Virus record (IMG/VR): IMGVR_UViG_3300045988_142756
Strand: one strand, 5' to 3'
Length of the DNA stretch: 64,000 nt
DNA from: a virus
How positions within the stretch are numbered: position 1 is the stretch's first letter; each line of letters begins with the position of its first letter. Shown here piece by piece: positions 6,127 through 27,946 of this stretch. A program made the position numbers and the translations under genes. Below the pieces are notes generated by a model, which was not told the DNA's origin, ran no database searches, and saw only the letters and a program-made list of their open reading frames with translations.

Positions 6127-6140
6127 AAATAAAAATATTT

Positions 6141-6217: not shown

Positions 6218-6229
6218 GGTATTCGTTTT

Positions 6230-6302
6230 GTAGGTTTGCTGTTACCGCTGTAAAACAGTAATGAGAGAAAGATACGCGTTAAATATCTCATATCAAACCT
6301 AC
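6230..6302 (+). ncRNA. tRNA-sized (73 nt) three-way-junction element between tRNA-Met and tRNA-Thr
   Basis: A 9-bp closing stem GTAGGTTTG/CAAACCTAC. Inner hairpins CTGTT/AACAG and ATGAGA/TCTCAT. It is not a canonical cloverleaf. Confidence 0.2.
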
Positions 6303-6305
6303 CTT

Positions 6306-6380
6306 GCTGGTATGGCTCAATGGCAGAGCAATTGATTTGTAATCAATAGGTTGTTGGTTCGACTCCAACTATCAGCTCCA
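6306..6380 (+). tRNA. tRNA-Thr (anticodon UGU), encoded CCA
   Basis: Acceptor GCTGGTA/TATCAGC; D arm GCTC-AATGGCA-GAGC; anticodon arm ATTGA-TTTGTAA-TCAAT; T arm GTTGG-TTCGACT-CCAAC. Confidence 0.85.
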
Positions 6381-10780: not shown

Positions 10781-10984
10781 ATGAAATTAGCAGACAGACA
10801 AGCAAAATTAGACGCCCACAAATGGGAAATGAGCCAAAAAGCAGGACACGATACTTGCGGAGAATATGATTTCTGTGCATATTGTAAAGGTGAAGAAGAA
10901 TTCCCTTGTGCAAGGGCGTATGACAGATTTGACAGAGAATTAAGGTCGACTTCTGCGTACAGAAAAGACAAGAAAAAGAAATGA
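10781..10984 (+). CDS. small Cys-rich protein
   Basis: ATG 10781 with a CAGGAG RBS. The track start at 10718 overlaps the previous gene. Sequence ...GHDTCGEYDFCAYCKGEEEFPCA... Confidence 0.5.
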   Translation: MKLADRQAKLDAHKWEMSQKAGHDTCGEYDFCAYCKGEEEFPCARAYDRFDRELRSTSAYRKDKKKK

Positions 10985-11415
10985 AATTTACTATAATACA
11001 TAATAATAAAGAATATCTTATCGACGCTAATAGTTTTAGTGAAGCAAGAAAAAAATTATTAGATATGTCGTTTACACAATCCGACGCCATAGACAAATGT
11101 AATTCTTTGGGTAGACAGTTTATAAACCATTTTGATAAGATATATAAAAATCCTAAAAGTCAATCTGTAAATCACTGGATAACAGAAATGACAAATGGGT
11201 GGAAGGAAGTTAAACAGATTAGATTAAAAGCAGATAATAAACCTATATCTAATTCTAAACTTCACGACTGGTTTTTTACCGTTGGTTCATACCCAGAGGA
11301 CGTCATAACTCGGCCTATAAACGGTGAGTTAGAGTGCTATGATATATTTATATTCAAGGTATTAAACGGCTGTGCTATAAAGGAATCTTTACGCGAAAGC
11401 GGCGTTAAAATTTAA
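10981..11415 (+). CDS. hypothetical protein carrying the recurrent N-terminal module; body weakly resembles a DUF29-like helical bundle
   Basis: N-terminus MKFTIIHNNKEYLIDANSFSEARKKLLD; ATGA overlap. Confidence 0.6.
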   Translation: MKFTIIHNNKEYLIDANSFSEARKKLLDMSFTQSDAIDKCNSLGRQFINHFDKIYKNPKSQSVNHWITEMTNGWKEVKQIRLKADNKPISNSKLHDWFFTVGSYPEDVITRPINGELECYDIFIFKVLNGCAIKESLRESGVKI

Positions 11416-11431
11416 TTTATAATAATCTTTA

Positions 11432-11448
11432 TATAATAATTTTGTAAA
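11432..11448 (+). promoter_or_regulatory. candidate late-type promoter core TATAAT-N5-TGTAAA without a TTTACA -35 box
   Basis: TATAAT 11432, TGTAAA 11443, 13 nt upstream of ATG 11461. Confidence 0.3.
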
Positions 11449-11460
11449 AAAGGAAATACT

Positions 11461-11742
11461 ATGATATCATATACAAGCAGAGTAGAAACATATACTAACT
11501 TCGGCGAGGATATAAAAAGAAATTGTGAACATCTTATAAAACTCGCTGAACAAGTAGATTCAGTACTAAATACATATTCAACTGATGTACAAGATATAGA
11601 CGCACAAAATCAAGCACACCAGATGTATTTAGCATTAAATCACGAAGTAAAAGAACTCGCAACTATATTAAATAGTATAAATGATGAAAATGGTCGACTT
11701 GATAGACTTTCAAATACATTACGACAAAGGGAAGGGCAATGA
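11461..11742 (+). CDS. hypothetical helical protein; small-terminase role not excluded
   Basis: 93 aa; first gene of the packaging block. The terminase suggestion is positional only. Confidence 0.55.
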   Translation: MISYTSRVETYTNFGEDIKRNCEHLIKLAEQVDSVLNTYSTDVQDIDAQNQAHQMYLALNHEVKELATILNSINDENGRLDRLSNTLRQREGQ

Positions 11743-12917
11743 AAACTTATAAGATAACCAGAGGTAATAAACAATATGTAATAAAAGCAAAAGATACTTA
11801 TTCTGCTGTTGCTAAATTACAGACTTTTTTGAAAGACAGTGAACCTATAGAAGATGATAGGTTATCTCCTATGACTTACAAAAAGTTAAAGGAAATGGGT
11901 TACAATTCAGACAAATGGAGAAATCTCACACAGGAAGAAGCAAACAAAATAGTTGCTAAATCTGAGACAAGTGCTAAACCCAAAACTGAAACGCCTAAGC
12001 AAGAAACTAAACAACCAAAAAATAATTCAGGTGCTGTTAAAAGTGAACTCGGTAACACTATAAGTTCCGATTTAGTTAAAAAATATCCTAATCTACATAA
12101 AGACTTAGGTAAGTTAGCGTCAGCGAATAGCAGAGTTCGTGAATTATCTAATTCAAATAATGGAAAAGATAAAGAAAAAGCATACGCATTGAGTGATAAG
12201 ATTGCGGCTTATTTAGATAAGCATTATCCGGATACATTAGGGGATGATTTAGGTGCGGATTCACTTTTAGATACTATTGGTGACGAAGATAGGTTTGAAG
12301 AAGCATTTTTGGATATCCTTGAAAATGGTAAACCAGAAGAAGCACCGGAAGAAACCGAATCTGTTAAATCAGAAGAAGGTCCAAGCAAGGAACTTCAAGA
12401 ACTTATTGCTAATAAACCTAATACTTTAGAATCTGCAACTGAACAAGGTAATAAGTTATGGGAGCAGATAAATAAAGATATTGCAAAACGTGGTTCAAAC
12501 ATTGTTAAAGCAAACGATGGCAGTGATTATACATTTGATATAACTGACGGCTCAAGTTATTCAAAAGCGTATAAAGCGGCATTGGCTGGTGCACCTGTAT
12601 CAGTAAATGGGTATGAAGCAAAAATTGAAAATCTTTCACCCGATGGGTATTTAAGAGCGTGCGCAACACAAAAAGAACAATCAGTTAAACAAATGATGGA
12701 AGACCGCATAGATGAAAATTATTATAAATTAGTTAAAGAATTAGGTAAATCTAAAACTATAAATAATTCTATATGGTTAGACCGGAATGCAAATCAACAA
12801 GAAGGTATTCATAGAGCAATGGCTCTTAAAAAATTAGGTGTAGAAACTATTCCTACCTTAGTGGTATCAAATAAACAAGTACCAGAAGAACAAAAAGATA
12901 AATATTTATCATTTTAA
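11739..12917 (+). CDS. recurrent N-terminal module plus C-terminal ParB/Srx-like nuclease-type domain
   Basis: N-terminus MKTYKITRGNKQYVIKAKDTYSAVAKLQTFLKD. C-terminal ...QQEGIHRAMALKKLGVETIPTLVV fits the ParB N-domain GxHR...G...IP pattern. Confidence 0.6.
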   Translation: MKTYKITRGNKQYVIKAKDTYSAVAKLQTFLKDSEPIEDDRLSPMTYKKLKEMGYNSDKWRNLTQEEANKIVAKSETSAKPKTETPKQETKQPKNNSGAVKSELGNTISSDLVKKYPNLHKDLGKLASANSRVRELSNSNNGKDKEKAYALSDKIAAYLDKHYPDTLGDDLGADSLLDTIGDEDRFEEAFLDILENGKPEEAPEETESVKSEEGPSKELQELIANKPNTLESATEQGNKLWEQINKDIAKRGSNIVKANDGSDYTFDITDGSSYSKAYKAALAGAPVSVNGYEAKIENLSPDGYLRACATQKEQSVKQMMEDRIDENYYKLVKELGKSKTINNSIWLDRNANQQEGIHRAMALKKLGVETIPTLVVSNKQVPEEQKDKYLSF

Positions 12918-12959
12918 TAAATAAAAACATTTATCAAATACAAAATAAAATATATATTG

Positions 12960-13012
12960 ATTCCTTTGATTCTATACAATATATTTGTATAACTAATCAA
13001 AGGAATTTTTTT
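12960..13012 (+). terminator. 12-bp perfect hairpin plus T7 run immediately upstream of terL
   Basis: ATTCCTTTGATT (12960-12971) pairs with AATCAAAGGAAT (12995-13006). The loop holds the palindrome ATACAA-tatat-TTGTAT. The T run at 13006-13012 abuts ATG 13013. Confidence 0.6.
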
Positions 13013-15055
13013 ATGCCAACGACAATAAATTTAAGAGAAGCCAAAATGTGGCAAATGAAAAAGTCGTTATATGCTTTCTTACGTGAAATGTGGGACGCAT
13101 ATGAAACGGCTCAGTATAGTGATATTTGGCTTATGGAATATCTATGTGAGTGCTTCCAGTATTCTGTGAAGCATTTTTTGCCGAATTATGTTTGGCGAGA
13201 TTGGATAACAGACGACGAATATAACTATATAAAAGAAAAATCTCACGGGGAGTGTCCTGTTAGAGATAAACTTATAAATGGCGAACACGTTCATAACCAC
13301 GATTGGAATATGCCACCTCGTCATTCAAAAAGTTCTATATTAAATATTTGTGGACCTGTTTGGTTAGGACTTAACTCACCTATATCCGTTGCAAGTGTAT
13401 CTCATACAGAACGCTTGTCAACAGAAATGAATACTAAACGCCAAAAATTATTGGAGAGTGATAAATTTAAGTATTATTTCACAGACAGTGCATATAGACT
13501 TAAAAATTCAACTGCTTCAATGATTAGACTTAACAGTGGGTCAACATTTTATTCGGTATGTCAATCATCTTTCACAGGTTTTGGTGCTGATGTTATTATA
13601 GCGGATGACTTAACTTCTGCCGATAATGCAAGAAAAGACGGACAAGTATTAAGAAATAGTATAGACTTTTTTAGAAAAACACTTCCAACCCGACTTAACA
13701 CAAAGAAAACAGGCGTAATATGGCATATAGAACAGAGAATTGCACGAGGCGATGTAAGTGGTTACATACAAGAGGATAAAGATTTATCGCGAGTATATAG
13801 TCATACAGAAATACAAGCAATAGCAACTGACGATAGAGTTTTAATATATCCGTGTAGTGGAAAAGTTAAAATAATTAAAAAAGGTGAAAAATTATGGCCT
13901 GAAAGATTTGGCGACTATTCTACTGCTAAAATGGAAATGGGTGCAGATGAATTTAATACTCAATACCAACAGGACGCAGGAGCGAGTGCAAGTAACATTG
14001 TTAAAGAACAATATATACATTATATAAGTGAAGAAGAATTTAGACGTGATTATAAACCTATGGCAGAATTCCATTATGGTTCACACGACTGCCCGGTAAA
14101 GGATAAAGAAATAAACGACTACCACGGGTTCGCAGAAGGATATGGTAGAGGTAATGAATTAGTAATATGCGAAGCGTGGCAAGAACATTTAGGGTATATA
14201 AAAGAAAAAGAACTATTAGTAAGTCTTGAAAATATAGACCCAGCAATAATACAGATAGTTGAAGATAAAGCAAACGGAGGTGCATTATTACAAGATTTAT
14301 CTTCTCAACTTGCAGGCTTAGCACCTTTTAATCCCGGAACAGACAGCAAATCTCAACGGTTGTCAATAGCAGCAACATATATGCAAAATGGAGCGGTAAG
14401 ATTTGTTAAATCCGATAAAACCTCAGAAGCAATAAGTAGTTTATTAAAATTTCCATTTTTAGTTCACGACGACGTTGTAGATGCTATAAGTCAAATGATT
14501 ATATATCACTTTACAAGTAGACGAATGGGTATATACACAAATAGTTTTACCTATCAAAATATAATACCAGATAGTGTTAGAGATAATTCACAATATTTGG
14601 AATATGGTGCAACTATTAACGGGGATACGATAAAGGTACTTGGTATAAATAGAATGTTTGATAGAGACGAATATGTTGTCGAAAAAGAATATATATTTAT
14701 AGGTATAAATAAATTTGAACAGTGGGCAAAAGAATTAAGAGGAAATTTATTATTAGATTGTAGTTATGAAAATAGATTATTTAACTTAGTTGATAAAAAT
14801 TCTGTATTTATGACCAAATTTAATGACACAGATACGGACAAATCTTTCCAACTTGTTAAATCTGGTTTTTATAATAACAAAATTAAAATATGTAACAGTT
14901 GCTCACAGACAAAAAACGACATTGCTAAATTAAGAATAACCGAATCATCACGCCGTAAAGGCACAGATGTACAAGAAACATTAGACGAAGGAATGGCGGG
15001 TTGCGTAAGAGGTTTAGTAACATATTTCAAAGGAATCGGTGGGCAGTGGTACTAA
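13013..15055 (+). CDS. terL: terminase large subunit
   Basis: Walker-A-like PPRHSKSS, Walker-B-like GADVIIADD, nuclease motif VHDDVVDAISQM. At 680 aa it has an unusually long C-terminal tail. Confidence 0.85.
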   Translation: MPTTINLREAKMWQMKKSLYAFLREMWDAYETAQYSDIWLMEYLCECFQYSVKHFLPNYVWRDWITDDEYNYIKEKSHGECPVRDKLINGEHVHNHDWNMPPRHSKSSILNICGPVWLGLNSPISVASVSHTERLSTEMNTKRQKLLESDKFKYYFTDSAYRLKNSTASMIRLNSGSTFYSVCQSSFTGFGADVIIADDLTSADNARKDGQVLRNSIDFFRKTLPTRLNTKKTGVIWHIEQRIARGDVSGYIQEDKDLSRVYSHTEIQAIATDDRVLIYPCSGKVKIIKKGEKLWPERFGDYSTAKMEMGADEFNTQYQQDAGASASNIVKEQYIHYISEEEFRRDYKPMAEFHYGSHDCPVKDKEINDYHGFAEGYGRGNELVICEAWQEHLGYIKEKELLVSLENIDPAIIQIVEDKANGGALLQDLSSQLAGLAPFNPGTDSKSQRLSIAATYMQNGAVRFVKSDKTSEAISSLLKFPFLVHDDVVDAISQMIIYHFTSRRMGIYTNSFTYQNIIPDSVRDNSQYLEYGATINGDTIKVLGINRMFDRDEYVVEKEYIFIGINKFEQWAKELRGNLLLDCSYENRLFNLVDKNSVFMTKFNDTDTDKSFQLVKSGFYNNKIKICNSCSQTKNDIAKLRITESSRRKGTDVQETLDEGMAGCVRGLVTYFKGIGGQWY

Positions 15056-15080
15056 AAATATAAATTATAACAAAATTTAA

Positions 15081-15097
15081 TAAAATAGTTATGTAAT
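15081..15097 (+). promoter_or_regulatory. candidate late-type core TAAAAT-N5-TGTAAT
   Basis: AATAAAATAGTTATGTAATTA closely resembles AATAAAATAAGTATGTAATTA at 49939. Confidence 0.25.
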
Positions 15098-15116
15098 TAA
15101 AAATAAGAGGTATATA

Positions 15117-15608
15117 ATGAGCAAATATATTATTAGAAATGGAATACCCATTAGGCTTGAGGACAGTATTAACTTTGAAGCCTTAGATTATATAAGGCAA
15201 GAGAAAAAGTTATCTGATACTAAACAAGTTAAAGATACAAGTAAGGTAAAAGATGAATTATCCGAGAAAGATTCTAAAGAACTTGGTATTCGAGATATGA
15301 TTGCTTTTACTCAGCAAAGAATTAGAAGTTTAATAAATGATGAGTATGAAGCAATAGACGGTTATACTTCCGCTATCACCGAATTTATGCGAAATTATAA
15401 AGAAACTAATGATGAATTATATAATCAATTAGCAATGGTATTAGCGGATATAAAGAAAGAAGAATTTCCTCACGTCGGTGAATTAAATAAATGTTTAAGT
15501 TTAATTGATGAAGAGGAAGGTAGATTATTTAATAAAGGCGTCAGAGAAGCGAAAAAGACAGTAGAAAAATCAATGGCGCCACAAGAACAAGAACAAGTGG
15601 AGGAATAA
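15117..15608 (+). CDS. hypothetical acidic protein
   Basis: AAGAGG RBS; 163 aa. Confidence 0.6.
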   Translation: MSKYIIRNGIPIRLEDSINFEALDYIRQEKKLSDTKQVKDTSKVKDELSEKDSKELGIRDMIAFTQQRIRSLINDEYEAIDGYTSAITEFMRNYKETNDELYNQLAMVLADIKKEEFPHVGELNKCLSLIDEEEGRLFNKGVREAKKTVEKSMAPQEQEQVEE

Positions 15609-15614
15609 TATAGA

Positions 15615-16079
15615 ATGAAAGTATTTTCGTTATCGTCAGTAAGAGGTACATTATATAATGAATATTATGGCCTTACAAGTTTTGGCGGTCAATCTTATAT
15701 AAATTTAGGTGGCGGTCAAAAACAAATTGAAAAGATTAGTTATTCATATAATACTGATATATTTAGTATGAGTTCTACTGCTGATGGCGGTGTAGTTGTT
15801 GCTCATAGTAATGATAGATCTGGTACTATTTCAATACAATTACAACAAACATCACCGCATATTAAAGTACTTACAGAATTTGCAAAATGGTGCTGGGCAA
15901 ATCCAGACAAAGCAGAAAGTACATTAACAGTTACAGATGATACAGGTAACTTAGCATTTACTGCTACACAAGTATTTATTAAAGGAATACCTGAAAATTC
16001 TGTAGGTTCAACAGCAACTGAGCGTACCTATACATTTATGGCAGGTAATATAGAATCTCAGGAATCTAATATCGGCTGA
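15615..16079 (+). CDS. virion structural protein, possibly tail-tube-like (DUF3277 / PhiTE-tube-like from memory)
   Basis: 154 aa, beta-rich; GGAGGA RBS. The family assignment is a recollection, not a search result. Confidence 0.4.
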   Translation: MKVFSLSSVRGTLYNEYYGLTSFGGQSYINLGGGQKQIEKISYSYNTDIFSMSSTADGGVVVAHSNDRSGTISIQLQQTSPHIKVLTEFAKWCWANPDKAESTLTVTDDTGNLAFTATQVFIKGIPENSVGSTATERTYTFMAGNIESQESNIG

Positions 16080-16094
16080 TAGGAGGAACAAAGA

Positions 16095-17273
16095 ATGGTA
16101 GATATCAATAAACTTATAGATGTTAATTTTAATATTGTAAGAGAAACAACTCCTATTGGCAGTTATAAGAAAGCGTTATATTTTATGAATAAAACCACTA
16201 ATACTGCTTTTAATGGATATTGTACTTATTTGTTAAACAGTGAGAATGGTTTAACTCGTCAAAAAACAGATGGTAAAGATAATGCACCATTGACAGTAGA
16301 TATATTTAATAAGATAAACGCTACTCTTAGTGATGCATTAAAAGAAACTAATGTAATTGCAAATCTGAGCAGATTCTTTAATTACGACGGACAAGAGTTA
16401 ATTGTTGTGGTATGTGATAATAAGGTACCTACTGCAGATGATGTGCAAGCAATTAAAAGAACTTTCCAAGATTTCATTTATTACACAGTATCACAAGATA
16501 TTTTTAACTCATTAACTGCTACAAATATAGACGAACTTAACAACGATATTTCTGCCCCATATACTGTAAGATTATGCTTAACAGTTAAAAATACTACAGA
16601 AAACGAAACAAAATTAACAAATGTTAAAAATAATAACATATTTGTTAAATTAGTGGATACCACAGTCGAAACAGATGATGCGTTATCTTTCTTGGCGTTT
16701 ACAACACAGATAAGGCTTGACGGATTTAATACTATCGAAGATTATTGCTACACAGACGAAAATGGGTTAACAGTTTTAGATAGTAAAGGTCATTATGATA
16801 CGTGGGTTACTAAATATAATTTCGTTGACAAAGTTGGCAATAAGGTACTTAACTTCGGCGGAAATTTATATAATGGAACATCTATTGACAGCGACTTTGG
16901 TGTAACTTGTATAGAAAACGATATTGCGTATGCTTTATTAGATATAGTAACAAGTAAAATTCGTATTACTCCAACGGCACAAACAAGGGTTGTTACGGCA
17001 ATAAACACTGTTCTTAACAGATATATTAACAATGGTTTAATACTGTCTAATTCCGTTTATAGCGGGGAAGATATGTTTATTAAATACAATGAAAAAACAT
17101 ATTCTATAATCCATAAAGGAACAACTTTATTAAATGGTTATTATGTATTTACAGTTCCTGTAAGTGCAATATCTGTAGAGGATAAACAAAATAAAAAATT
17201 CACACCGATTATCGTAGTCATTATGACTTCGGCAGGAGCAAGAACAATAAGCGTATCTGGTTACGCATATTAA
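16095..17273 (+). CDS. virion structural protein, possibly tail-sheath-like (DUF3383-like from memory)
   Basis: 392 aa; AGGAGG RBS; paired with the preceding tube-sized gene. The baseplate genes imply a contractile tail, and no other sheath candidate is present. Confidence 0.4.
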   Translation: MVDINKLIDVNFNIVRETTPIGSYKKALYFMNKTTNTAFNGYCTYLLNSENGLTRQKTDGKDNAPLTVDIFNKINATLSDALKETNVIANLSRFFNYDGQELIVVVCDNKVPTADDVQAIKRTFQDFIYYTVSQDIFNSLTATNIDELNNDISAPYTVRLCLTVKNTTENETKLTNVKNNNIFVKLVDTTVETDDALSFLAFTTQIRLDGFNTIEDYCYTDENGLTVLDSKGHYDTWVTKYNFVDKVGNKVLNFGGNLYNGTSIDSDFGVTCIENDIAYALLDIVTSKIRITPTAQTRVVTAINTVLNRYINNGLILSNSVYSGEDMFIKYNEKTYSIIHKGTTLLNGYYVFTVPVSAISVEDKQNKKFTPIIVVIMTSAGARTISVSGYAY

Positions 17274-17281
17274 GAAGATAA

Positions 17282-18934
17282 ATGGACAGGCTCAAAAAGA
17301 ACACTTTAATAGACAATATTGAAATATCCATCAGTGACGCTGCACCTAAGATGCCAACTGATATAAGTAAAGCATCAGTAGAGCAACGCATTAAAATGGC
17401 TACAAAGTTAATGGACGACGCATTAGGTATGTCCGTTAGTAATGGTGTGAGCGTTAAAGATGGGTCTTTCAATAATAGTCGACTTAAATTAGGTATAAGT
17501 GATATAAACCTTAACAGTGGCGAATACTTCACTGATATGATTACATTCGACAGAATGACAATCATAGAATTATATCACGGAAACTGGATATTTAGAAGAA
17601 TAATTGACAGGGTTGCACAAGATATGTGGTCACACGGTATTGCTATAAAATGTGATACAGACCCAGTCGAATTAGAAAATGTTTACAAAAGATTAAATAG
17701 ATTAAACAGTCAACTTATTTATGGACGAGAGCAGGCAAGGTTATTTGGTGGTGCTGCCTCTCTTATTATGGTTGACGATGGTGAAGAAGATTTATCAAAA
17801 CCATTAAATATAAATAATATAAAACCACATTCCCCTATAAGATTATATACAACGGATAGATGGTACGGGTTAGAAACAAGTACTGAATTAGTAACTAACT
17901 TCAAGAGCGTTGATTTTAATACACCTAAATATTATACCTTCTATTTAGATAACGGCGATTCTAAACGGTCTACACAGTTCACAAGAGTACATCATAGCAG
18001 AGTACTTCGTCATACAAATAGACGAACTGTAAGAATGATGGAAGATAGGCTTATGGGCTGGGGGTTAAGTGAGTTAGAACATATTTATCAAACACTTCTT
18101 GCTCATACCACAATGAATATGTCTTCCGTATCACTTGTCGGCAAATCATTACTTGAAATTGTTAAGGTTTCGGGTATGAGAGGTATGATGAGTGGACTCA
18201 GTATGGGTAACAGTGGAGCACAAGCACAATTAGGTGCCCAGTTGTCTGCAATAAATAATTATAGAAACATAAATGATTTAGTTTTAATTGATAAAGATGA
18301 CGAATATGACAGAAAAGAACTTCAATTAAATGGATTAAATGATTTATTACAAAACGAACAAGAACTTATTGCAGGTGCTGCTGAAATGCCACAGGTTCTA
18401 ATTTACGGACAAACTAAAAATGGTTTAGGCGATAATGCAACTGAAATGGTATTCTACGCACAAACAATTCTTGGAAAACAAGAAGCAGAGTTAAGGGTAG
18501 AATTAGATAAATTATTACCTATAATATTTAAGGTAGAAGGATTAGAAGTACCTTCAAATTTAGACTATGATTTTAATAGTATAAATGATATGGAACCTGA
18601 TGCAAAAGTAAATCTTATAAATAGTGTAGCAGGTGCTATAAATACTCTTACCGAAGCAGGGTTAATGACAAAAGAAACCGGATTAGCAGAATTAAAACAA
18701 TATTCGGCTATAACTGGATTTGGTGCTAACTTAGCAGAAAGAGATTTAGAGTTAGCCAAACAAATGGACCAGCAGTCGGGTGAAGAAGAAGATGAACTGA
18801 GCGGAATGAATTTAGGTAGTAATGAACCACAAGTTGGTGAAGAACAACCTGAAGATAATTTAACCGATGACTATGCAGAAGTAAAAGAAAAGGTACTTAA
18901 AAATAAATTCTTTGATAGGAAAAAGCGTAAATGA
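17282..18934 (+). CDS. portal protein (DUF1073-type)
   Basis: 550 aa. Supported by its position, the motif ELYHGNWIFRRIIDRVAQDMW and an acidic C-terminal tail. Confidence 0.75.
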   Translation: MDRLKKNTLIDNIEISISDAAPKMPTDISKASVEQRIKMATKLMDDALGMSVSNGVSVKDGSFNNSRLKLGISDINLNSGEYFTDMITFDRMTIIELYHGNWIFRRIIDRVAQDMWSHGIAIKCDTDPVELENVYKRLNRLNSQLIYGREQARLFGGAASLIMVDDGEEDLSKPLNINNIKPHSPIRLYTTDRWYGLETSTELVTNFKSVDFNTPKYYTFYLDNGDSKRSTQFTRVHHSRVLRHTNRRTVRMMEDRLMGWGLSELEHIYQTLLAHTTMNMSSVSLVGKSLLEIVKVSGMRGMMSGLSMGNSGAQAQLGAQLSAINNYRNINDLVLIDKDDEYDRKELQLNGLNDLLQNEQELIAGAAEMPQVLIYGQTKNGLGDNATEMVFYAQTILGKQEAELRVELDKLLPIIFKVEGLEVPSNLDYDFNSINDMEPDAKVNLINSVAGAINTLTEAGLMTKETGLAELKQYSAITGFGANLAERDLELAKQMDQQSGEEEDELSGMNLGSNEPQVGEEQPEDNLTDDYAEVKEKVLKNKFFDRKKRK

Positions 18935-19362
18935 TAAAACAATATAGAGTTAAAATAAATGATAGAAATTTTATTGTTAAGGCTGAGAATCAACGACAAG
19001 CAGTACTTAAAGTTAAGGCAGTAATAAGAGATATAGGCTCTATTATAAAAGGTGTGTCGTTTTCATACAAAGAAAATATACCTTCTGCACTAAACTTAAA
19101 TAAAATATATGACGATACTGTATATCGTTTAGGTAATAATACATATCTATATATTAGAATATTAACTACACAAAATCTAATGTTCCACGAAGATATGTGG
19201 AATTATATAGAACGGTTATATAAGGGTTCAGAATCTGAAAGATACGCTATAACGGCATATAAAGACCATAATAATAACGTAATATTTGAATCAAGTAATA
19301 ATAGCCCGTTTGATGCTAAGTTAGAACAGCTATGTAGGAAATATTATAGAAATAATGATTAA
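18931..19362 (+). CDS. hypothetical protein with the recurrent N-terminal module
   Basis: MIKQYRVKINDRNFIVKAENQRQAVLKVKAVIRD; ATGA overlap with the portal gene. Confidence 0.6.
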   Translation: MIKQYRVKINDRNFIVKAENQRQAVLKVKAVIRDIGSIIKGVSFSYKENIPSALNLNKIYDDTVYRLGNNTYLYIRILTTQNLMFHEDMWNYIERLYKGSESERYAITAYKDHNNNVIFESSNNSPFDAKLEQLCRKYYRNND

Positions 19363-19391
19363 ATAGATTATAAATAAGGAGAATCTTATAT

Positions 19392-19985
19392 ATGAAGTTA
19401 ATGAAAACAACACGAAGCGAAGGTGAATTCTTAACTCGTTTTAGCACCGAATATAAAATGACTAAATCAAAAACACCTCAATTCGTTACAATATTAGTAC
19501 CAGATGAACAAGCACAACTTATGCAAAGAATAGGCATAAATGATTTTATAGCAGGTGATTCTGTAGAAGATGTTATGACATCTGTAAAAGTTTATAAGTT
19601 AGACCCTGCTAATGTGCCACAAGATGCAAATAAAGTAGATTGTGCTAAAAACCAAACTGTTGTAACTGTTTCTAATGGTCAAGATGAAAATCAATTTAAG
19701 ATTTATGCACCGTTAGATAAGATGGTTAAGTTTAATAGTACTAACCCTAATCAAGGTGAACATTATTGGATAGGTATTGCAGTGCAAACAGGAGAGGCAT
19801 CAATAACAAGCCTTAAATGGAATGGAACACAATTAACATCTTTAGATGTTGCAGACGCTAATTCAGTTAAATTACCTACTGGTAGTATTATTTTATGGTT
19901 ACCTGGTGAAACAACCGGCACAGCGTCAGCAGTCGTTTCTAAAGGGGATAAATCAACCGTATTGGTATTTGAATTCATACATTAA
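19392..19985 (+). CDS. hypothetical beta-rich, possibly virion-associated protein
   Basis: AAGGAG RBS; 197 aa. Confidence 0.6.
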   Translation: MKLMKTTRSEGEFLTRFSTEYKMTKSKTPQFVTILVPDEQAQLMQRIGINDFIAGDSVEDVMTSVKVYKLDPANVPQDANKVDCAKNQTVVTVSNGQDENQFKIYAPLDKMVKFNSTNPNQGEHYWIGIAVQTGEASITSLKWNGTQLTSLDVADANSVKLPTGSIILWLPGETTGTASAVVSKGDKSTVLVFEFIH

Positions 19986-19997
19986 GAGGAACAATAT

Positions 19998-21998
19998 ATG
20001 AGAGAATTTAGAATTAAAGTAAATGATGAAAAAACCTATGTAGTTAAAGCAAATGATTATAATCAAGCCGTTAAAACTTTACATAGTAAATTAAGAGATT
20101 TTGATTTAACAAACTTCCTTGCATTAAAACGTTCTCTTGAATTAAGAATAGGTGAAGAGATAGATTTTGATAAATTAGAAGAATACGTTAATAAATTACC
20201 AAAAGATAAAAACGGCAAGAAAAATGTAGATGTTAAAGAAGTTATTAAGTGCTGTATAAAAGCAAAGGATAACGCAGTAAGTGATTCCATTAGTAAGTAT
20301 AATGGTGAAGACGCAATAAGAACTAATGGTTTTGTAAAAATAAAAGAAGATGGTGATTGGACTTCCTATAAATATAATGGAAGTGATTTTGATGGTGCTG
20401 TTTTCAAAATTCATCAATACAATCCGAGTTTAATTGCTTTCGTCAGTAATGGTAATAGAACTATAACTGTAAGAAATAAATATCTTAATGACGCTGATAA
20501 TACTGCACAAGGTGAAATAGAAGTTTTGAAGTCTTTTGGATTTGATTATAAAGACGGAAAATGGGTAAAAGAATCTAATAATAACACTATTGTTGCCCAA
20601 CCTGATTATCATTATGTTTCCGTAATAGGACCTGGTGATACGGAGAAACATTGTAAAAAATATCAATATCAATCTGCAGGAATGCTTAAAAAAATAATAG
20701 CATCAAATATTAAAGATTCTTCTATAACTGATACGGATATGAAAACTGCCGAAGATATCATAAAGAAATATGGTGGTAATCCTGTTGGCAACGTTATGGG
20801 CTTACAAAAAACTCGTTTTGTAGGTCAAGATGAAATTAAAAATCAACACGATTTTGCCACTGACTTAGATAAAGCAGGGTATAAATTCTATTTAATAAAT
20901 GGTAGATATCGTATATCACCTAAAGATTCTTCTATAAAAGATGTATCTTATGTAAGTGGTAAAAACTTAAAAATAGGACAGAAAATAGTAGAAGATGGTG
21001 AAGTATTAGAAGTTGTGGATATAAAAGAAACTCAAAGGGGAGTAAATAATAATTATAGAGATGTAACTTTTAAGAATGTTAAAACAGGTGCTACTGAAAC
21101 CGTTCATTTTGGAAATAGTACATTGGCAAGATTAAATGATTATTCTATAAAAGATAGTGATAGTTATCAAGTATGGACTATAAATGAAAAAGGTGTATAT
21201 CATAAAGAAGCAGATGTACCAAATCCGCAATTAGCAAAAGCGATTGCGTCTCAATTAAAGAAACAAGGTAGATGGGTTCAGATATCTAAAAATTCAAGAA
21301 CAAATATAGTTAGTGACTGTGATATGATGGATTCTTTAAGTATAAAAGTTAAGCTTAATGGCAAAACATATAACGGTATATTTAATGGTATATCTAATAC
21401 AGATAAAACTTTCGGTGATGTATATATTCCTGAACTTGTTTCACTTCATAGCGGTGATAAAGGCGTATTTAATCCGGATGAAGGAAATTACGTTTCGGAC
21501 GGTAAATTTTATTTCAAGATGGAAAATCTTAAGAAATGGAATCCTTTTCTAAATAATTATTTAACTGATTCTAATATAACTGATGCTGACCCTGTAAAAG
21601 TAGAAAAGATTATTAGAAAAGAAAAAAGTGCATTAGGTGTTACATATTATATTTTCCAAACAAAATCAAGTAGTGGTTATACAATATATTATCAAGTAAC
21701 TGATAAAACTTATCACGGCGAACCTACTTACTCGGGCGGTGGTATAGTATCGTTCTCATTAAAATCAGCGAATGATACTTTAGACCATAACTTATTATCA
21801 GACAAACTCAAAGCAAAATATGGTGAGAAAGAAGGAACAAAGAGATATTTACGCGGTGAGAATGATAGTGCTATAAAAGATTCTAATAATATTAAAAATC
21901 GTAAATCTTATACAATAAAGGTAGGAGACAAACAGTATAAAGTATTTGCGGAATCTGAAAGTGAAGCAATAAATAAATACATTAAAAGTAAGAAATAA
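19998..21998 (+). CDS. large head-region protein (666 aa) with the module at both termini and seven D-S-x-I-[KT]-D-type motifs
   Basis: N-terminal MREFRIKVNDEKTYVVKANDYNQAVKTLHSKLRD. C-terminal KSYTIKVGDKQYKVFAESESEAINKYIKSKK. The motif Asp falls at residues 96, 240, 310, 381, 445, 524 and 623. Confidence 0.7.
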   Translation: MREFRIKVNDEKTYVVKANDYNQAVKTLHSKLRDFDLTNFLALKRSLELRIGEEIDFDKLEEYVNKLPKDKNGKKNVDVKEVIKCCIKAKDNAVSDSISKYNGEDAIRTNGFVKIKEDGDWTSYKYNGSDFDGAVFKIHQYNPSLIAFVSNGNRTITVRNKYLNDADNTAQGEIEVLKSFGFDYKDGKWVKESNNNTIVAQPDYHYVSVIGPGDTEKHCKKYQYQSAGMLKKIIASNIKDSSITDTDMKTAEDIIKKYGGNPVGNVMGLQKTRFVGQDEIKNQHDFATDLDKAGYKFYLINGRYRISPKDSSIKDVSYVSGKNLKIGQKIVEDGEVLEVVDIKETQRGVNNNYRDVTFKNVKTGATETVHFGNSTLARLNDYSIKDSDSYQVWTINEKGVYHKEADVPNPQLAKAIASQLKKQGRWVQISKNSRTNIVSDCDMMDSLSIKVKLNGKTYNGIFNGISNTDKTFGDVYIPELVSLHSGDKGVFNPDEGNYVSDGKFYFKMENLKKWNPFLNNYLTDSNITDADPVKVEKIIRKEKSALGVTYYIFQTKSSSGYTIYYQVTDKTYHGEPTYSGGGIVSFSLKSANDTLDHNLLSDKLKAKYGEKEGTKRYLRGENDSAIKDSNNIKNRKSYTIKVGDKQYKVFAESESEAINKYIKSKK

Positions 21999-22579
21999 TG
22001 ATGACAATAGAAGACTTAAAAATTAACATTGATAATTGTGTTAAATACATTAAAGATAAGTACGGAGAGCAGGAAGATTTAAGTCCTGCTCAATGGCTTA
22101 CCTTAATCGCCGAAGAATTTGGTGAATTTGCACAAGAAATAAACGATAATAATTTAGGTAACAATTTTATAGAAGAAGGTTGTCAAGTATGTGCAACTAC
22201 TTTATGTGCTATGGAGCAAATATTTAATAATTCAACTAAGGTGAATGTTATGGATAAGAAATTTGTAATTAAGAAAAATGACAAGAAATATGTAGTTTAT
22301 GCTACAGATGCTGAAACAGCAAAACAAAAATTAGAAGTTAAGATAAACCCAGATAGAGTTGTTGAAGTAGCAGATGCTTATAATATTTCTTTAGATAGGT
22401 ATGATAGTCAATTATCAAGATTAAATAACGCTATACAACTGTTAGAAGGCGTAGATGGATATAGTAAAATATATAACAGCGTCCAGGGGTTATGGGGTGT
22501 ATTGAAAAAAGAAATACAATCCGATAATAGACTTTCTGATGATGAGAAACAAGGTTTATTTAGAAAGTATAATTTATAA
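21998..22579 (+). CDS. MazG-like all-alpha NTP pyrophosphohydrolase domain fused to the recurrent module
   Basis: LIAEEFGEFAQEIND (EExxE motif). The module begins at the internal Met85 (nt 22250), which is preceded by an AAGGTG RBS-like sequence. Confidence 0.6.
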   Translation: MMTIEDLKINIDNCVKYIKDKYGEQEDLSPAQWLTLIAEEFGEFAQEINDNNLGNNFIEEGCQVCATTLCAMEQIFNNSTKVNVMDKKFVIKKNDKKYVVYATDAETAKQKLEVKINPDRVVEVADAYNISLDRYDSQLSRLNNAIQLLEGVDGYSKIYNSVQGLWGVLKKEIQSDNRLSDDEKQGLFRKYNL

Positions 22580-22584
22580 GATAA

Positions 22585-23508
22585 ATGAAAAAGAAACTTA
22601 CACCGAGTTTTCTTTTACGCAAACGAAAACGCTTAAAACCTAATCAGACCGCTGCGGTTAAATTTTTCAATTACTTAAAGAAAGAATTAACTAAGCAACT
22701 GAACCTTAAAAAAGATTCTACCATAGAAGACGCATTAGATAAACTTCTAAAGGTAGATTTCACAGGGATTAAAAAACATATTAACAGATTAGGTTTAGAC
22801 GTTCTAAAAAAGAATAGAGAAGGCTTTGCAAATATTCTTGAGTCTTTAACAATAGGCTTAGCACAACAAAATATACAAAAACAAAAACAACGAGAAGAAG
22901 AATTATTCAAACAAGCATTACCAAGCCTAATTAAAGAAACTAAGATATATCAACCTTTTTTGGATAAGTTTAATGAGAATATGTCGCTCATAAAAAACTT
23001 ACCAGCAGATGTTGAAAGAGAACTTAAAAAAGCATACCTTAAAGGCGAAGGATTCCGTGGACAGGATATAGAAGACTATATTACTGAGAAAATGGGTAAA
23101 CGAGCAAAACTCATTATCAGAACGGAAAGTGCTAAATTAAATTCTGCATTAACAGAAGTACGAGCAAAGAGTTTAGATATTAACTGTTATATGTGGAGTA
23201 CAAGTCAAGATGCAAGGGTAAGACCAAGTCATAAGTTAATGAATAATGTATTAGTATTCTTTAATGATACTCCTATTCTTGACGGAATGAAGGGTAATGC
23301 AGGTGAAACACCTAACTGTCGCTGTATTGAATTACCAGTATTTGGAATAGATGATATATCGTTTCCAGTAAAGGTAGCAGAAAGGTTAGTAGTAGATAGT
23401 AAATATAATAAATCTACTAAAAAGTCAAACGCAATAATAAAAAGCGGTAGAATCGCTATTTATAATAAAAAAGAATTTATAGAAAAATACGGAAATAATT
23501 TCAATTGA
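22585..23508 (+). CDS. head morphogenesis protein, Mu gpF / SPP1 gp7 family
   Basis: WSTSQDARVRPSHKLMNN...GETPNCRCIELPV matches the family signature R..H...P.CRC. Confidence 0.8.
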   Translation: MKKKLTPSFLLRKRKRLKPNQTAAVKFFNYLKKELTKQLNLKKDSTIEDALDKLLKVDFTGIKKHINRLGLDVLKKNREGFANILESLTIGLAQQNIQKQKQREEELFKQALPSLIKETKIYQPFLDKFNENMSLIKNLPADVERELKKAYLKGEGFRGQDIEDYITEKMGKRAKLIIRTESAKLNSALTEVRAKSLDINCYMWSTSQDARVRPSHKLMNNVLVFFNDTPILDGMKGNAGETPNCRCIELPVFGIDDISFPVKVAERLVVDSKYNKSTKKSNAIIKSGRIAIYNKKEFIEKYGNNFN

Positions 23509-23518
23509 GAGGTATTAA

Positions 23519-24919
23519 ATGAAAAAATTCAAAATTACACAAGGCGATAGGGTTTATATAGTTGATGCAAAAAGTCATATAGACGCTATTAGCAAAGTTA
23601 AGGCAGTTAAAACGGATGAGATGAGAGATTCTATATCTCAATGGAATCCAGGTATGAGTGAAATAGGTTTATTTCAAATTTCATACAAGCGCAACGGGGT
23701 ATATCAATCAATACTTGTCAGAGCCAACTCTGAAGAACAGGCAAAGCAGAAGTTATTAAACAATCTAAACGGAGTAGATATTATAGGAGTTAATTCCCAC
23801 CCTTCTCCTCACTTCCACGAACCTATTTTAGATTCTAAGATAAAAGATGATGGTTATTATTATTTACTCAGAGATGCTATTGATTTATTAACTAAACCGG
23901 GTGCAGCAAGAAGTTGGTCACAGCCTTATTTAGAGGAAGTACAAGAATATATGGTTCAAAAAGGCATAAACCCTACAAATGTAAATCAGTGGAAGAAAAA
24001 ATATGAAAGCCTTACTAAGGATTCCTCAATAAAAGATATAAATCAAGTATTATTATCTAATCTTAAACAAGTAGCACAAAAAGGTGATGCTTGGTGGAAT
24101 AAATGGAAGAAATTATTAGATATGAGTGATAAATGGAATTCTTATCAATGGAAGGAACTTAGAAATAATGACCCTAAAAAATATAAACTTATTATTAATA
24201 ATAAACAGTATGCGGAAAAAGAAGCTGAGGCACTAAATAGAGAATGGGATAGAGCAATAGATGCTTTAAGCAGAGACAGATCGTTTGGTCGTCCTGGTGA
24301 TTATAGAATGGATTTACACAGTTACAAATCTCGTAATGATAATTATCCTATGGGTAATAGTCGAAGATATGATGAGATTTTATATGGTTATGAACAAGCA
24401 GAAAAATCTGCCAGAGCAAAAAAGGGCTTAGATTCTTCTATAAAAGATGCGTGGTCTGGTATTAGAAGTAATGGGGTTATATTTAACTATTCTAATGGAA
24501 AATATACAATAACGCATAAGAATGGCAAGGTAGAAACATTCCCTGATAATAAATTTAATACTGTCGAAGAATTATTTAAGTATATAGATAATATAAAAGA
24601 CTCTGCTATTAAAGATGAAGATTATTCTAAATATTTGTCTATTGTAAAACAACTTGAGAAACTTGTAGAACCTGCTAATAGAGCGTTACAACAGAAAATT
24701 GCAAAATACGGTGTAACTAAACAAGATATAAGAAATAATTCTCCAAAATATAGAGATGTATGTAGAGAAATACCAGAATTAAAAGTATGGGCAAAGTTAA
24801 TTATGCAGTTACCTGGAGAATTAGCAGGATTTATGCCTGCACACCCGAGTCAAGAAAGTGTAGATAAACTTAAAAAAGCAATAACTAATAGTAAAGCATT
24901 TGACTCCACTATAAAATAA
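23519..24919 (+). CDS. large head-region protein (466 aa) with two module copies and six D-S-x-I-K-D-type motifs
   Basis: MKKFKITQGDRVYIVDAKSHIDAISKVKAVK, and FQISYKRNGVYQSILVRANSEEQAKQKLL. The motif Asp falls at residues 37, 105, 168, 305, 361 and 462 (C-terminal FDSTIK). Confidence 0.7.
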   Translation: MKKFKITQGDRVYIVDAKSHIDAISKVKAVKTDEMRDSISQWNPGMSEIGLFQISYKRNGVYQSILVRANSEEQAKQKLLNNLNGVDIIGVNSHPSPHFHEPILDSKIKDDGYYYLLRDAIDLLTKPGAARSWSQPYLEEVQEYMVQKGINPTNVNQWKKKYESLTKDSSIKDINQVLLSNLKQVAQKGDAWWNKWKKLLDMSDKWNSYQWKELRNNDPKKYKLIINNKQYAEKEAEALNREWDRAIDALSRDRSFGRPGDYRMDLHSYKSRNDNYPMGNSRRYDEILYGYEQAEKSARAKKGLDSSIKDAWSGIRSNGVIFNYSNGKYTITHKNGKVETFPDNKFNTVEELFKYIDNIKDSAIKDEDYSKYLSIVKQLEKLVEPANRALQQKIAKYGVTKQDIRNNSPKYRDVCREIPELKVWAKLIMQLPGELAGFMPAHPSQESVDKLKKAITNSKAFDSTIK

Positions 24920-25105: not shown

Positions 25106-26287
25106 ATGAGAATTATTGATAACAGATTAACATTTGGGCATAAGATAACTCCTCGTATTTGGGAAGATAATTCGGGTTATCTTATTTGCTATGACTGCAT
25201 ACTTGCAAGAACAGGTAGTTATGACTATTTGGAAAGTGAGATAATGCAAGACGGTGACCCAAATAAAATTGTAAAAGTATATAGAACTCCTGAAGAAGTA
25301 TTTAGTCCTGAGGCTATTGCTTCTTTTGAGAATAAACCATTTTGTAACGAACACCCACAAGACGATGTAACGCCGGAGAATTATAAGGACTTAATGGTAG
25401 GTACCATTAGGAATATTAGAAGGGGTACAGGTAATTTAGAAAACTGTTTAGTTGGCGATGTAATAGTTTTTGACCCCGAAGTACAAGAGTTAATTAAAAG
25501 CGGTGAAAAAAGAGAATTGTCGTTAGGTTATAATACAGATATAATACAAGACCAGTCAGGTCGATATGTGATGACTAATATAAGAGGAAATCACTTAGCA
25601 CTTGTTGACAGTGGTAGGGCAGGGTGTGCTACTATTAGAGATAGTGCAAAATCATTAAATAAATTAGGAGGACAAAACGGAATGAAGAATATCCGTAATG
25701 GCAAAAAATTCAAGTATAAGATGCTTGATGAGGACGTTTACGAAGTAGTAGATGCAGAGCCTGAAGAAGAACTTGATGTCATAGAAGATGATGATATTTC
25801 GACTGAAGAAGCACCTGCACCTGTTACAGAAGAGCCTGTCCACGATGACGACGACGATAAAATGAGTCAAGTTTTGGATATGCTCACTAAAATTTGTGAA
25901 CATTTAGGTATTGGTGCTGATGAAGCAGAACCCGTTGTTGACGAAGATGTACCTGAGGAAGTTGAAGAAGAAATCGTAACTGACGAAGATGTTCCTATGG
26001 AAGAAGATACGCCGGTAGAAGATGAAGATGATACTTTTGAAGTTGAAGAAATTGAAGACGACGACGAAGAATTAGAACTTAGTGAAGAAAACAAAGCAAT
26101 GGACGCAGATGCTTGCTTACCTAAGATGGACGAAGGTATGAAAAAAGATGCTGCTCCTAAAAAGAAGAGTGGTTCGGTGAAAGCATATTCTAAATTTGCA
26201 GCAGTTAAAGATTCGGCTCCTGTTGTAACAGCAGAAGATGTACAAAAATCGTTCCAAGACCGTTATGATAGAGCGGCTAAGAATTAA
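25106..26287 (+). CDS. scaffold or prohead-protease-like protein (DUF2213-like) with a long acidic tract
   Basis: GNHLALVDSGRAG motif. D/E-rich region at about aa 210-330. Located upstream of the capsid gene. Confidence 0.6.
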   Translation: MRIIDNRLTFGHKITPRIWEDNSGYLICYDCILARTGSYDYLESEIMQDGDPNKIVKVYRTPEEVFSPEAIASFENKPFCNEHPQDDVTPENYKDLMVGTIRNIRRGTGNLENCLVGDVIVFDPEVQELIKSGEKRELSLGYNTDIIQDQSGRYVMTNIRGNHLALVDSGRAGCATIRDSAKSLNKLGGQNGMKNIRNGKKFKYKMLDEDVYEVVDAEPEEELDVIEDDDISTEEAPAPVTEEPVHDDDDDKMSQVLDMLTKICEHLGIGADEAEPVVDEDVPEEVEEEIVTDEDVPMEEDTPVEDEDDTFEVEEIEDDDEELELSEENKAMDADACLPKMDEGMKKDAAPKKKSGSVKAYSKFAAVKDSAPVVTAEDVQKSFQDRYDRAAKN

Positions 26288-26809: not shown

Positions 26810-27946
26810 ATGGCAAATCAAATTTTTCAGCAAGTAAGCCTCAGAGATAGCACGGAAAGTATTGCGGCTACTCACGGCGAACAAAAACTTGGTATCAAAT
26901 TAAGGGATTGGGCTCCTGCTGTATATCATCAGTTGTATAAAGACCCTGTTAAGGCACGTATTCACGATGCAAACTTTGCATTCGTTATGACAACCCTTAG
27001 CAAACTTCACAATAAACAATATCAACCGAAAGTCAACTACACTTACGCACAAGATATTCCTATCGATGTCGGCGGTGGAATGGTTGATTTCGTGGATTAC
27101 TTCTCGGTAGAATGGGCAGGTCAGCCCACTGAGGACCAGAACGTTATGGGTAATAACGTCAATATTATTCCTCGTGTTAATGCTAAACTCAATCATACGG
27201 CAGTTGAAGTTTACAACTTTGAAATTGCTTATGATATGAAGTTTATTGAAGTTGACAAACTCGAGAAGATTAGTTTCCAAAAAGCAGTTGAAGCAATTTA
27301 TAAAGATGCTATTATGGCTGGTTGGGACCAGTTCTGTGACCGTATTGCTTATGAAGGTCGTGCAGGTGTTGATGGCTTTATCAACAATGCTAATGTTCCT
27401 GTAAATGAAATTCCGGCAGGTTCCAAAGATGCAAGTAAGACTGGTTTCGAAGGTATGACGGATGAAGAAATCGTAAGTTTCATTAACGGTATTCTTAACC
27501 TTTATCTTACTAACACTAACCAGAACATTGAAATGTTACCTGATACGTTATTACTTCCTACGAAAGATGCTGCTATTCTTTCGAGCAGGTTCAGTGCATT
27601 ATATACCTCGACATTGCGTGAATTCATTATGAAACACAATATAGGTATTGACGAAGCAGTTGCTGCTGGTGTTAATAACTATGTTCTTAAGATTCGTGGT
27701 CGTGCAAGACTTAACGGTATTGGCACACATAACACAGGTCGTATAATTGCTTATAAGTTCGATAAAGATTATGTCCGTATGGATATTCCTTATCCTATCC
27801 AGAGTTATTATACCGCTCCTAACATTGATAAAGCGTGCTATACCACATACTTTGTCGGTCAGGTATCTCGTATCCAACTTCCGTACAATGAGAGCGCTGA
27901 TACATTTGGTGCTGTTTCGTACTGGGATTTCGCTGCACAAGGCTAA
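26810..27946 (+). CDS. major capsid protein (DUF2184-like)
   Basis: 378 aa; GAGGAGG RBS. Supported by its position after the scaffold and by the hairpin that follows. Confidence 0.75.
   Translation: MANQIFQQVSLRDSTESIAATHGEQKLGIKLRDWAPAVYHQLYKDPVKARIHDANFAFVMTTLSKLHNKQYQPKVNYTYAQDIPIDVGGGMVDFVDYFSVEWAGQPTEDQNVMGNNVNIIPRVNAKLNHTAVEVYNFEIAYDMKFIEVDKLEKISFQKAVEAIYKDAIMAGWDQFCDRIAYEGRAGVDGFINNANVPVNEIPAGSKDASKTGFEGMTDEEIVSFINGILNLYLTNTNQNIEMLPDTLLLPTKDAAILSSRFSALYTSTLREFIMKHNIGIDEAVAAGVNNYVLKIRGRARLNGIGTHNTGRIIAYKFDKDYVRMDIPYPIQSYYTAPNIDKACYTTYFVGQVSRIQLPYNESADTFGAVSYWDFAAQG

Follow-up and report, generated by a model that had tools for sequence, protein, structure and literature searches.

A recurrent basic module in the head-morphogenesis block of a tailed phage is a possible virion-incorporation tag

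Results and discussion

The DNA considered here, a 64,000-nucleotide stretch from IMG/VR virus record IMGVR_UViG_3300045988_142756 (hereafter the window), carries eight copies of a module of about 30 residues, distributed over six genes (g10981, g11739, g18931, g19998, g21998 and g23519; coordinates in Table 1) in a region identified as the head-morphogenesis block of an uncultured tailed phage of ~92 kb. We propose that the module may be a shared head-incorporation (virion-attachment) tag, a reading to which we give somewhat less than an even chance and in which we infer packaging, the binding partner, cleavage and ejection from sequence. We prefer it because of the placement of the carriers in the head block, the pairing of a constant tag with variable cargo, the precedents for some of that cargo, the match of a basic module surface to an acidic scaffold, and an acidic motif that follows the tag.

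The copies are similar at the protein level

An initial annotation of the window, made from the letters and translations only, had listed eight copies in six genes, and all of them are present in the translations where it placed them. To avoid circularity, their similarity was assessed by a leave-one-gene-out procedure, in which the profile was rebuilt without any copy from the tested gene. The left-out copies were always the top matches among the 1148 six-frame segments of the window, with E-values of 4e-8 to 8e-5, as against 0.2-1 for the best segment that is not a copy; the second copy of g23519 was weaker (0.014). Every copy also scored above 2000 of 2000 composition-preserving shuffles (17.8-36.8 bits, versus at most 14 bits for the shuffles), and the similarity noticed in the initial annotation is therefore significant against shuffled controls. 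The highest score belongs to the N-terminal copy of g23519 (36.8 bits; left-out E 4e-8), the copy of g10981 reached 26.1 bits where none of its shuffles exceeded 7.5, and even the second copy of g23519, which has a longer hairpin, reached 17.8 bits against a maximum of 10.3 and was matched by hhalign with a probability of 93%. Searching the six-frame translation with the eight-copy profile revealed no further copy on either strand of the window, nothing else scoring above 7 bits.

The mean pairwise protein identity among the copies is 33%, and their third codon positions are 46% identical, compared with 38% expected from composition. The copies are thus old paralogous modules whose similarity is kept at the protein level: with third codon positions near random, the possibility that the module is a DNA repeat or a recombination-boundary sequence was rejected.

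Some weaker resemblances were also recorded. Residues 220-241 of g23519 may be a degenerate ninth copy (hhalign probability 17%). The N-terminus of g15117, MSKYIIRNGIPIRLEDSINF, resembles a half-module consisting of the hairpin only, followed by DSxI. Finally, a small protein encoded at 59555-59803, YVVASSEEEADQKMKK, partly resembles the second strand and the helix of the module (hhalign 35%, HMM E 0.2-0.4), a resemblance that is too weak for it to count as a copy.

The module is restricted to the head block in six lineages

Related loci were fetched both via the portal and via module-bearing proteins. This added five lineages of the same type of phage (L003, L004/5, L006, L008 and L012), whose portals are 44-48% identical where measured. 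Each carries three to six clear copies, all in genes lying between the terminase and the protease/scaffold gene. With the window included, the six lineages have three to eight copies per genome. As a negative control, we used the nearest public sequence, the IMG/VR contig L001 (91,961 bp; portal 99% identical to that of the window), which was walked to position 90.9 kb, together with 29 loci of the non-head DNA of the clade (approximately 300 kb and 136 kb). No module was found in these ~435 kb of other clade DNA (best E 0.64), which makes the head-block restriction robust. The confinement to packaging and head genes put forward in the initial annotation therefore holds well beyond the window.

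Among 26 copies, 14 are N-terminal, four are C-terminal and eight are internal. Copies from the same genome are about as similar to each other (0.353) as copies from different genomes (0.346), and concerted evolution within genomes was rejected on these values.

In L003, three proteins encoded after Mu-F (12889-14103, 14113-14838 and 14862-16523) begin with the hairpin half only (for example MKVYKIRIRDKLFVIK). Two of the three then continue directly with DDRLSPMTYxKLKE[ML]GY, a segment that g11739 has after its full module.

A small basic fold with a distant link to DpnD/PcfM

The AlphaFold2 model obtained from the eight-copy alignment (mean pLDDT 89.9) has strands at positions 2-8 and 11-17 and a helix at 20-34, with which it terminates, in agreement with the strand-turn-strand-helix arrangement suggested from the residue pattern in the initial annotation. 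A Foldseek search of the model against the PDB gave nothing below an E-value of 2.9, the best geometric match being to the hairpin-helix half of the protein G B1 domain. In a sequence search of the PDB, the module profile matched nothing but the strand-helix units of designed TIM barrels, and these trivial matches were discarded.

The module carries a net charge of +4.3 on average, whereas 31-residue windows of the proteome have a mean of -0.5 +/- 2.9. When 24 copies are aligned, the hydrophobic core accounts for the invariant positions (F/Y2, V/I4, Y/F11, V13, A15, A21 and V/L/I25). Outside the core, K/R9 in the turn and K24 in the helix are each basic in 96% of the copies, while positions 1, 3 and 5 of the first strand are basic in 50-62% and almost never acidic. 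The module is most likely a small, strongly basic, independently folding beta-beta-alpha domain, as far as the model and the alignment indicate.

A hairpin packed with a helix would leave an open sheet edge, through which modules could pair with one another by beta-sheet augmentation or dimerisation, and the carriers could then co-assemble into one internal body without any separate receptor. Proteins of the g19998 family, with a module at both ends, could act as cross-links in such a body, and several proteins hold two or three copies. However, the uniform positive charge of the module disfavours self-association in the absence of a counter-charged partner, and the copies are not homogenised within genomes. 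We regard homotypic association as quite unlikely.

Pfam, PHROG and NCBIfam contain no family that significantly matches the module, whether in the six carriers, in 15 isolated modules or in 42 family members. When 1.84 billion representative proteins were searched exhaustively with HMMER, only 56 reached E <= 1e-3, and the module family is therefore rare. A connection to a named family is provided by P0067, a 53-residue protein retrieved by the module profile at an E-value of 7e-4. On the one hand, it passes the gathering score of PF14207 (DpnD/PcfM-like; 25.2 bits, gathering score 25). On the other, its residues 1-38 align with a 15-copy module profile at an hhalign probability of 96.8%, the non-carriers among all 96 genes of the window reaching at most 36%. 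Direct comparison of the isolated modules with the PF14207 HMM gave a match for one of 15 (E 0.18, below the gathering score), and the full-length carriers gave none.

The N-terminal beta-hairpin-helix of the DpnD/PcfM family has the same hydrophobic pattern as the module. In contrast, the C-terminal ~12 residues of the family are absent from the module, whose hairpin is about three residues shorter; moreover, the family is a full domain of ~46 residues, usually in stand-alone proteins of ~50-60 residues, whereas the module forms part of proteins of 143-980 residues and is located in head blocks. A homologue search from P0067 gave just four near-identical proteins, so the link depends on one bridging sequence family. 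With this in mind, we regard the module as a probable shortened branch of the DpnD/PcfM superfamily that has lost the segment after the helix. The statement in the initial annotation that the module is not a recognised family accordingly stands with regard to direct library matches, but not with regard to this distant, detectable relationship. Our literature search on the function of PcfM and DpnD found nothing usable.

The DpnD/PcfM family occurs in contexts of DNA entry, its names coming from genes of a restriction cassette and of a conjugative plasmid, and P0067-type genes have RadC and DUF4121 neighbours. Combined with a charge of +4.3, two near-invariant basic positions and the co-occurrence of the module with a ParB-like domain in one carrier (g11739), this context would suit a nucleic-acid-binding mini-domain that holds the carriers on phage DNA (or RNA) for co-ejection or early protection, with no targeting to the capsid. 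Such a role would leave unexplained both the confinement to the head block and the use of the module as the constant end of shuffled arrays (see below), and Foldseek shows no resemblance to a known DNA-binding fold. Furthermore, proteins bound to DNA are not normally taken through the portal during terminase-driven packaging. We consider nucleic-acid binding of this kind improbable.

Two carriers are arrays of exchangeable cassettes

The proteins g19998 and g23519 are arrays of small cassettes divided by a D-S-x-I-K-D motif, a feature that goes beyond the initial annotation. There are four occurrences of D-[ST]-x-I-[KT]-D in each of these two proteins and one in the other ~18,000 residues of the window; the end of g23519 is itself a half-motif, DSTIK (nt 24902-24916). 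In a representative library, 24 proteins of the g19998 and g23519 families contain 88 such separators. When these proteins were split at the separators and the pieces clustered with a required coverage of 80%, each protein turned out to be a different string of cassettes, 31-239 residues long, drawn from a limited repertoire. For instance, g23519 reads D-E-I-B-J and its relatives D-E-B-H-J, G-C-B-H and A-C-F-H. The first piece of an array always holds the module, and full-length g19998-type proteins also end with it. In P0008 and P0022, the module alone constitutes the first cassette, with DSSIKD directly after it. The second copy of g23519 is part of a mobile cassette that is also found in g19998-type proteins of relatives (P0028/P0061).

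The exchange of cassettes can be followed between close relatives. The g19998 proteins of the window and of L001 are ~98% identical, yet three whole cassettes differ (70, 69 and 98 residues), and every boundary of the insertions and deletions falls exactly on a separator. Such exchange of whole payload modules between near-identical genomes points to an arms-race function. The separators are similar but not identical as DNA, with different serine codons, and the motif is retained in lineages whose portals share less than 50% identity; it is therefore selected as a protein sequence.

These arrays bear on the possibility that the module has no role in assembly and is an ordinary cassette of the DpnD/PcfM superfamily, perhaps with an anti-defence activity in the infected cell, the head block merely hosting genes that shuffle. 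The module is itself bounded by a separator in some relatives (cassette 'G'), it has the link to DpnD/PcfM, and its conservation is mainly that of core residues, all of which would fit. Nevertheless, the module keeps its terminal position whereas other cassettes change places, the six bodies joined to it in the window are unrelated to each other and those in other lineages are different again, and three to eight copies per genome would be odd for a single effector activity. We give this explanation very little probability.

The bodies are unrelated, and some resemble known head cargo

With the modules masked, BLAST detects no similarity among the six carriers (best E 0.15, at a linker motif), in line with the description of the attached bodies as unrelated in the initial annotation. 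The C-terminal 141 residues of g11739 were modelled by AlphaFold2 with a pLDDT of 91.8. Foldseek places ParB-N, sulfiredoxin and PadC at the top of the PDB matches of this domain, all weakly (E 0.16-3), and the BFVD matches are phage ParB/Sulfiredoxin proteins (probability 0.99-1.0, TM ~0.5), including multi-domain phage proteins of 1044 and 1435 residues. A PDB match to 7uek OT3 (E 1e-5) was dismissed on reading the alignment, as this is a repetitive designed protein. The predicted structure thus supports a ParB/sulfiredoxin-like (ParB/Srx-like) domain, and agrees with the 'ParB-like' label of the initial annotation, for which sequence gives no support. The 'MazG-like' label given to g21998 fared less well: Pfam MazG is matched only at an E-value of 0.15, over an EEFGEF motif in the N-terminal part, and g21998 has neither homologues beyond fragments nor a PDB match.

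The neighbouring g15117 matches encapsulin ferritin-like (EncFtn-like) cargo families, the EncFtn-like matches reaching 23-41 bits against an NCBIfam cutoff of 90. Regions similar to g15117 occur in a 510-residue protein of L004/5 (L004 4384-5916) and in an 810-residue protein of L012 (15299-17731), and in both the EncFtn-like region is accompanied by a full module at the C-terminus. Among the 42 family members, the other bodies contain no recognisable domain, and neither these proteins nor the carriers have detectable effector, LPD, zincin-like MPTase or other peptidase domains of Pfam. Below threshold, Pfam matches in the family members are to KOW-like EFP_N in four, LysM in two and an atypical Rib in one.

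In relatives of g18931 (P0015-P0018), the module and the last ~20 residues are kept and most of the body between them is missing, indicating that this body is dispensable or variable.

Strain-level shuffling of cassettes is typical of exposed proteins that face the host or the environment, and the EFP_N, LysM and Rib hints, non-significant as they are, point to small beta binding domains. The block also includes a gene for a cement or decoration protein. The module could thus be an external anchor that fixes the arrays to the outer surface of capsid or neck, with the cassettes serving as surface adhesins. However, ParB/Srx-like, EncFtn-like and possibly MazG-like cargo would make little sense outside the capsid, and the carrier genes group with the portal and Mu-F genes instead of the capsid and cement genes; moreover, the Pfam hints remain below significance. 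We see only a small likelihood for an external anchor.

A possible route into the head

Taken as a head-incorporation tag, the module would act as follows. Diverse, fast-evolving head-block proteins each carry it at one end, or sometimes internally, and in the assembling procapsid it would bind a single common component, most plausibly the acidic stretch of the DUF2213 scaffold/protease, the portal and Mu-F being alternatives. The cargo would in this way be enclosed in the head and exit later with the DNA. Cleavage at protease sites located after the helix and between cassettes would set the tag free and divide the arrays into small proteins, in a manner similar to the capsid-targeting sequences (CTS) of T4. 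The adaptor or tag suggested in the initial annotation has thereby gained circumstantial support, from the constant terminal modules, the reshuffled cargo and the presence of ParB/Srx-like and EncFtn-like proteins among the latter.

Residues 200-340 of the DUF2213 protein have a net charge of -53, and the protein is a candidate both for the partner of the module and for the processing enzyme. In a cross-lineage alignment, it has an invariant GRAGCATIRD/S right after the domain (aa 178-179) and VKD/S near the C-terminus (aa 368-370). The N-terminus of the capsid protein has a conserved Asp after φ-[KR] at D13 and D33 (aa 12-13 and 32-33), Mu-F has KDSTIED at aa 43-49, and φ-[KR]-D-[SA] follows many modules, after the helix. 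A pattern chosen post hoc, [KRLN]DS[SATK], was counted 13 times within the head block and four times elsewhere, an eight-fold higher density (p 5e-5). These φ-[KR]-D-[SA] and D-S-x-I-K-D motifs are probably sites of the maturation protease. A literature search on the specificity of DUF2213 proteases found nothing usable.

A more elaborate proposal is that of a previously undescribed plug-and-play system for head cargo, in which one folded tag distantly derived from DpnD/PcfM would be combined with payloads in the form of cassette arrays, and D-S-x-I-K-D would be both the recombination junction at which strains exchange cassettes and the protease site at which an array is split into separate injected proteins. 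We put this forward tentatively, as a possible but rather unlikely arrangement.

Several observations weigh against a head-incorporation tag. With respect to the partner and to cleavage, the annotation of DUF2213 as a protease comes only from PHROG, and the structural paper on Pa193 calls a protein of this type a scaffold and shows no cleavage (PMC11456595). With respect to the carriers, g10981 and g11739 are encoded upstream of terL, and it is possible that they are not virion proteins. Eight of the 26 copies are internal instead of terminal, a distribution that fits a folded adaptor domain better than an N-terminal signal of the T4 kind. Since the copies within one genome resemble each other no more than they resemble those of other genomes, there is no sign of lineage-specific co-evolution with a partner, and since the conserved positions are mostly those of the hydrophobic core, conservation may largely reflect the fold only. 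P0067-type genes are found among small genes with RadC and DUF4121, outside head blocks, and the fold itself is therefore not head-specific. Lastly, no cultured phage close to the window was found by megablast, and its portal is at most 30% identical to that of any isolate (tblastn).

Comparison with known head-loading systems

To our knowledge, how tailed phages select the proteins that are enclosed in the head or injected is understood in only a few models, namely T4, P1, P22 and N4.

In T4, all internal proteins join the scaffolding core via a CTS of 10-20 residues, and the prohead protease cuts this sequence off at a short motif with an acidic final residue (PMC5694885). Like the CTS of IPI-III and Alt, the module is an element common to otherwise unrelated proteins and is mostly found at the N-terminus, with a conserved motif after it whose last residue is Asp. 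In contrast, the CTS is a linear propeptide, whereas the module is a predicted folded domain of ~30 residues that also occurs at the C-terminus and internally, and the two have no sequence similarity.

In P1, the first 30 residues of DarB, itself a large protein, suffice for loading into heads, also of a reporter, and the authors of that study found no consensus among the N-termini of the Dar proteins (PMC9024508). The joining of a ~30-residue N-terminal module to a ParB/Srx-like domain in g11739 recalls this arrangement. However, one recognisable module is common to all carriers in the window, whereas loading in P1 is hierarchical and proceeds via DarA/Hdf. No homologues of Dar proteins were found in this phage.

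According to PMC5512222, ParB domains of the DdrB type occur in polyvalent proteins beside virion genes and in the head-packaged DdrB of P1, and polyvalent proteins are mosaics with Mu-F and DdrB-ParB as hubs, proposed to be packaged, injected and processed (Iyer et al., 2017). The multi-cassette families of g19998 and g23519 resemble them in varying rapidly and in lying within the head block, where Mu-F is a neighbouring, separate gene in the middle of the block. They differ in that their cargo is divided among several separately tagged genes, and in that the cassettes are much smaller. The fixed D-S-x-I-K-D separator is a further difference, as targeted text searches of PMC5512222 did not find it there.

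The loading of encapsulins offers another parallel, a common terminal tag on different cargo inside an HK97-fold shell, with the added likeness of an EncFtn-like cassette linked to a C-terminal module. Nevertheless, encapsulin tags are short linear C-terminal peptides, whereas the module is predicted to be folded and is mostly N-terminal, and the shell here is a phage capsid accompanied by portal, terminase and tail genes. Similarly, T4 Hoc and T5 pb10 have a small anchor domain at one end that bears variable exposed domains, but no sequence or fold match to either was obtained, and some of the cargo described here is enzyme-like.

The gene order of Pa193, with the portal followed further on by the DUF2213 scaffold, cement and capsid genes, matches that of the window. 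In Pa193, gp20 and gp21, encoded just after the portal gene gp19, are present in virions by liquid chromatography-mass spectrometry and are not visible in the maps (PMC11456595).

Tags for head loading are therefore already known, and what differs here is the use of one folded mini-domain on all candidate cargo genes, at either end, together with cassette payloads that have fixed junctions. If the reading as a tag is correct, the module would mark packaged or ejected proteins in metagenomic phages and would provide a compact part for loading foreign proteins into capsids. It may also suggest a role for the DpnD/PcfM family, which is still uncharacterised.

Genomic context

All genes of the window are on the + strand and its GC content is ~30%. 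Matches to PHROG 38, PF06381 and PF04233 confirm the terL, portal and Mu-F-like genes that the initial annotation had taken as the surroundings of the module. A cement-like (decoration) protein gene is also encoded in the head block, with the capsid gene.

Table 1. Positions in the window of the module copies, the separators and the surrounding head-block genes. Left-out E-values are those of the leave-one-gene-out searches.
Feature	Position (nt)	Strand	Remarks
Module copy 1	10981..11064	+	N-terminus (aa 1-28) of g10981 (10981-11415, 144 aa); left-out HMM E 2e-5
Module copy 2	11739..11840	+	N-terminus (aa 1-34) of g11739 (11739-12917, 392 aa); left-out E 1e-6
Module copy 3	18931..19035	+	N-terminus (aa 1-35) of g18931 (18931-19362, 143 aa), directly after the portal gene
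Module copy 4	19998..20105	+	N-terminus (aa 1-36) of g19998 (19998-21998, 666 aa, cassette array)
Module copy 5	21897..21995	+	C-terminus (aa 634-666) of g19998
Module copy 6	22250..22351	+	Internal (aa 85-118) in g21998 (21998-22579, 193 aa)
Module copy 7	23519..23620	+	N-terminus (aa 1-34) of g23519 (23519-24919, 466 aa, cassette array)
Module copy 8, longer hairpin	23666..23773	+	aa 50-85 of g23519; left-out E 0.014
Five D-[SY]-x-I-[KT]-D separators of g19998	20715, 20925, 21138, 21567, 21864 (18 nt each)	+	aa 240, 310, 381, 524, 623
Four D-S-x-I-K-D separators of g23519	23831, 24020, 24431, 24599	+	aa 105, 168, 305, 361
Large terminase (terL)	13013..15055	+	PHROG 38, E 8e-49; upstream side of the block for most module copies
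g15117, encapsulin-ferritin-like (EncB/EncFtn-like) protein	15117..15608	+	NCBIfam NF058679, E 1.3e-10, under the curated cutoff
Tube-like (KPP10_Orf10/PhiTE tube) gene and sheath-like gene	15615-17273	+	Between large terminase and portal
Portal	17282..18934	+	PF06381, E 9e-67
Mu-F-like head morphogenesis protein	22585..23508	+	PF04233, E 7e-13; PHROG 324
DUF2213 (Pa193_gp24-type) protease/scaffold	25106..26287	+	PF09979, E 2e-45; PHROG 530, head maturation protease
Major capsid protein	26810..27946	+	PF09950, E 1e-30

The order of large terminase, tube-like, sheath-like and portal genes is conserved at all related loci. Outside the head block, an early-looking region of the window (5740-6380) contains four clustered tRNA genes (Leu-TAA, Pro-TGG, Met-CAT and Thr-TGT).

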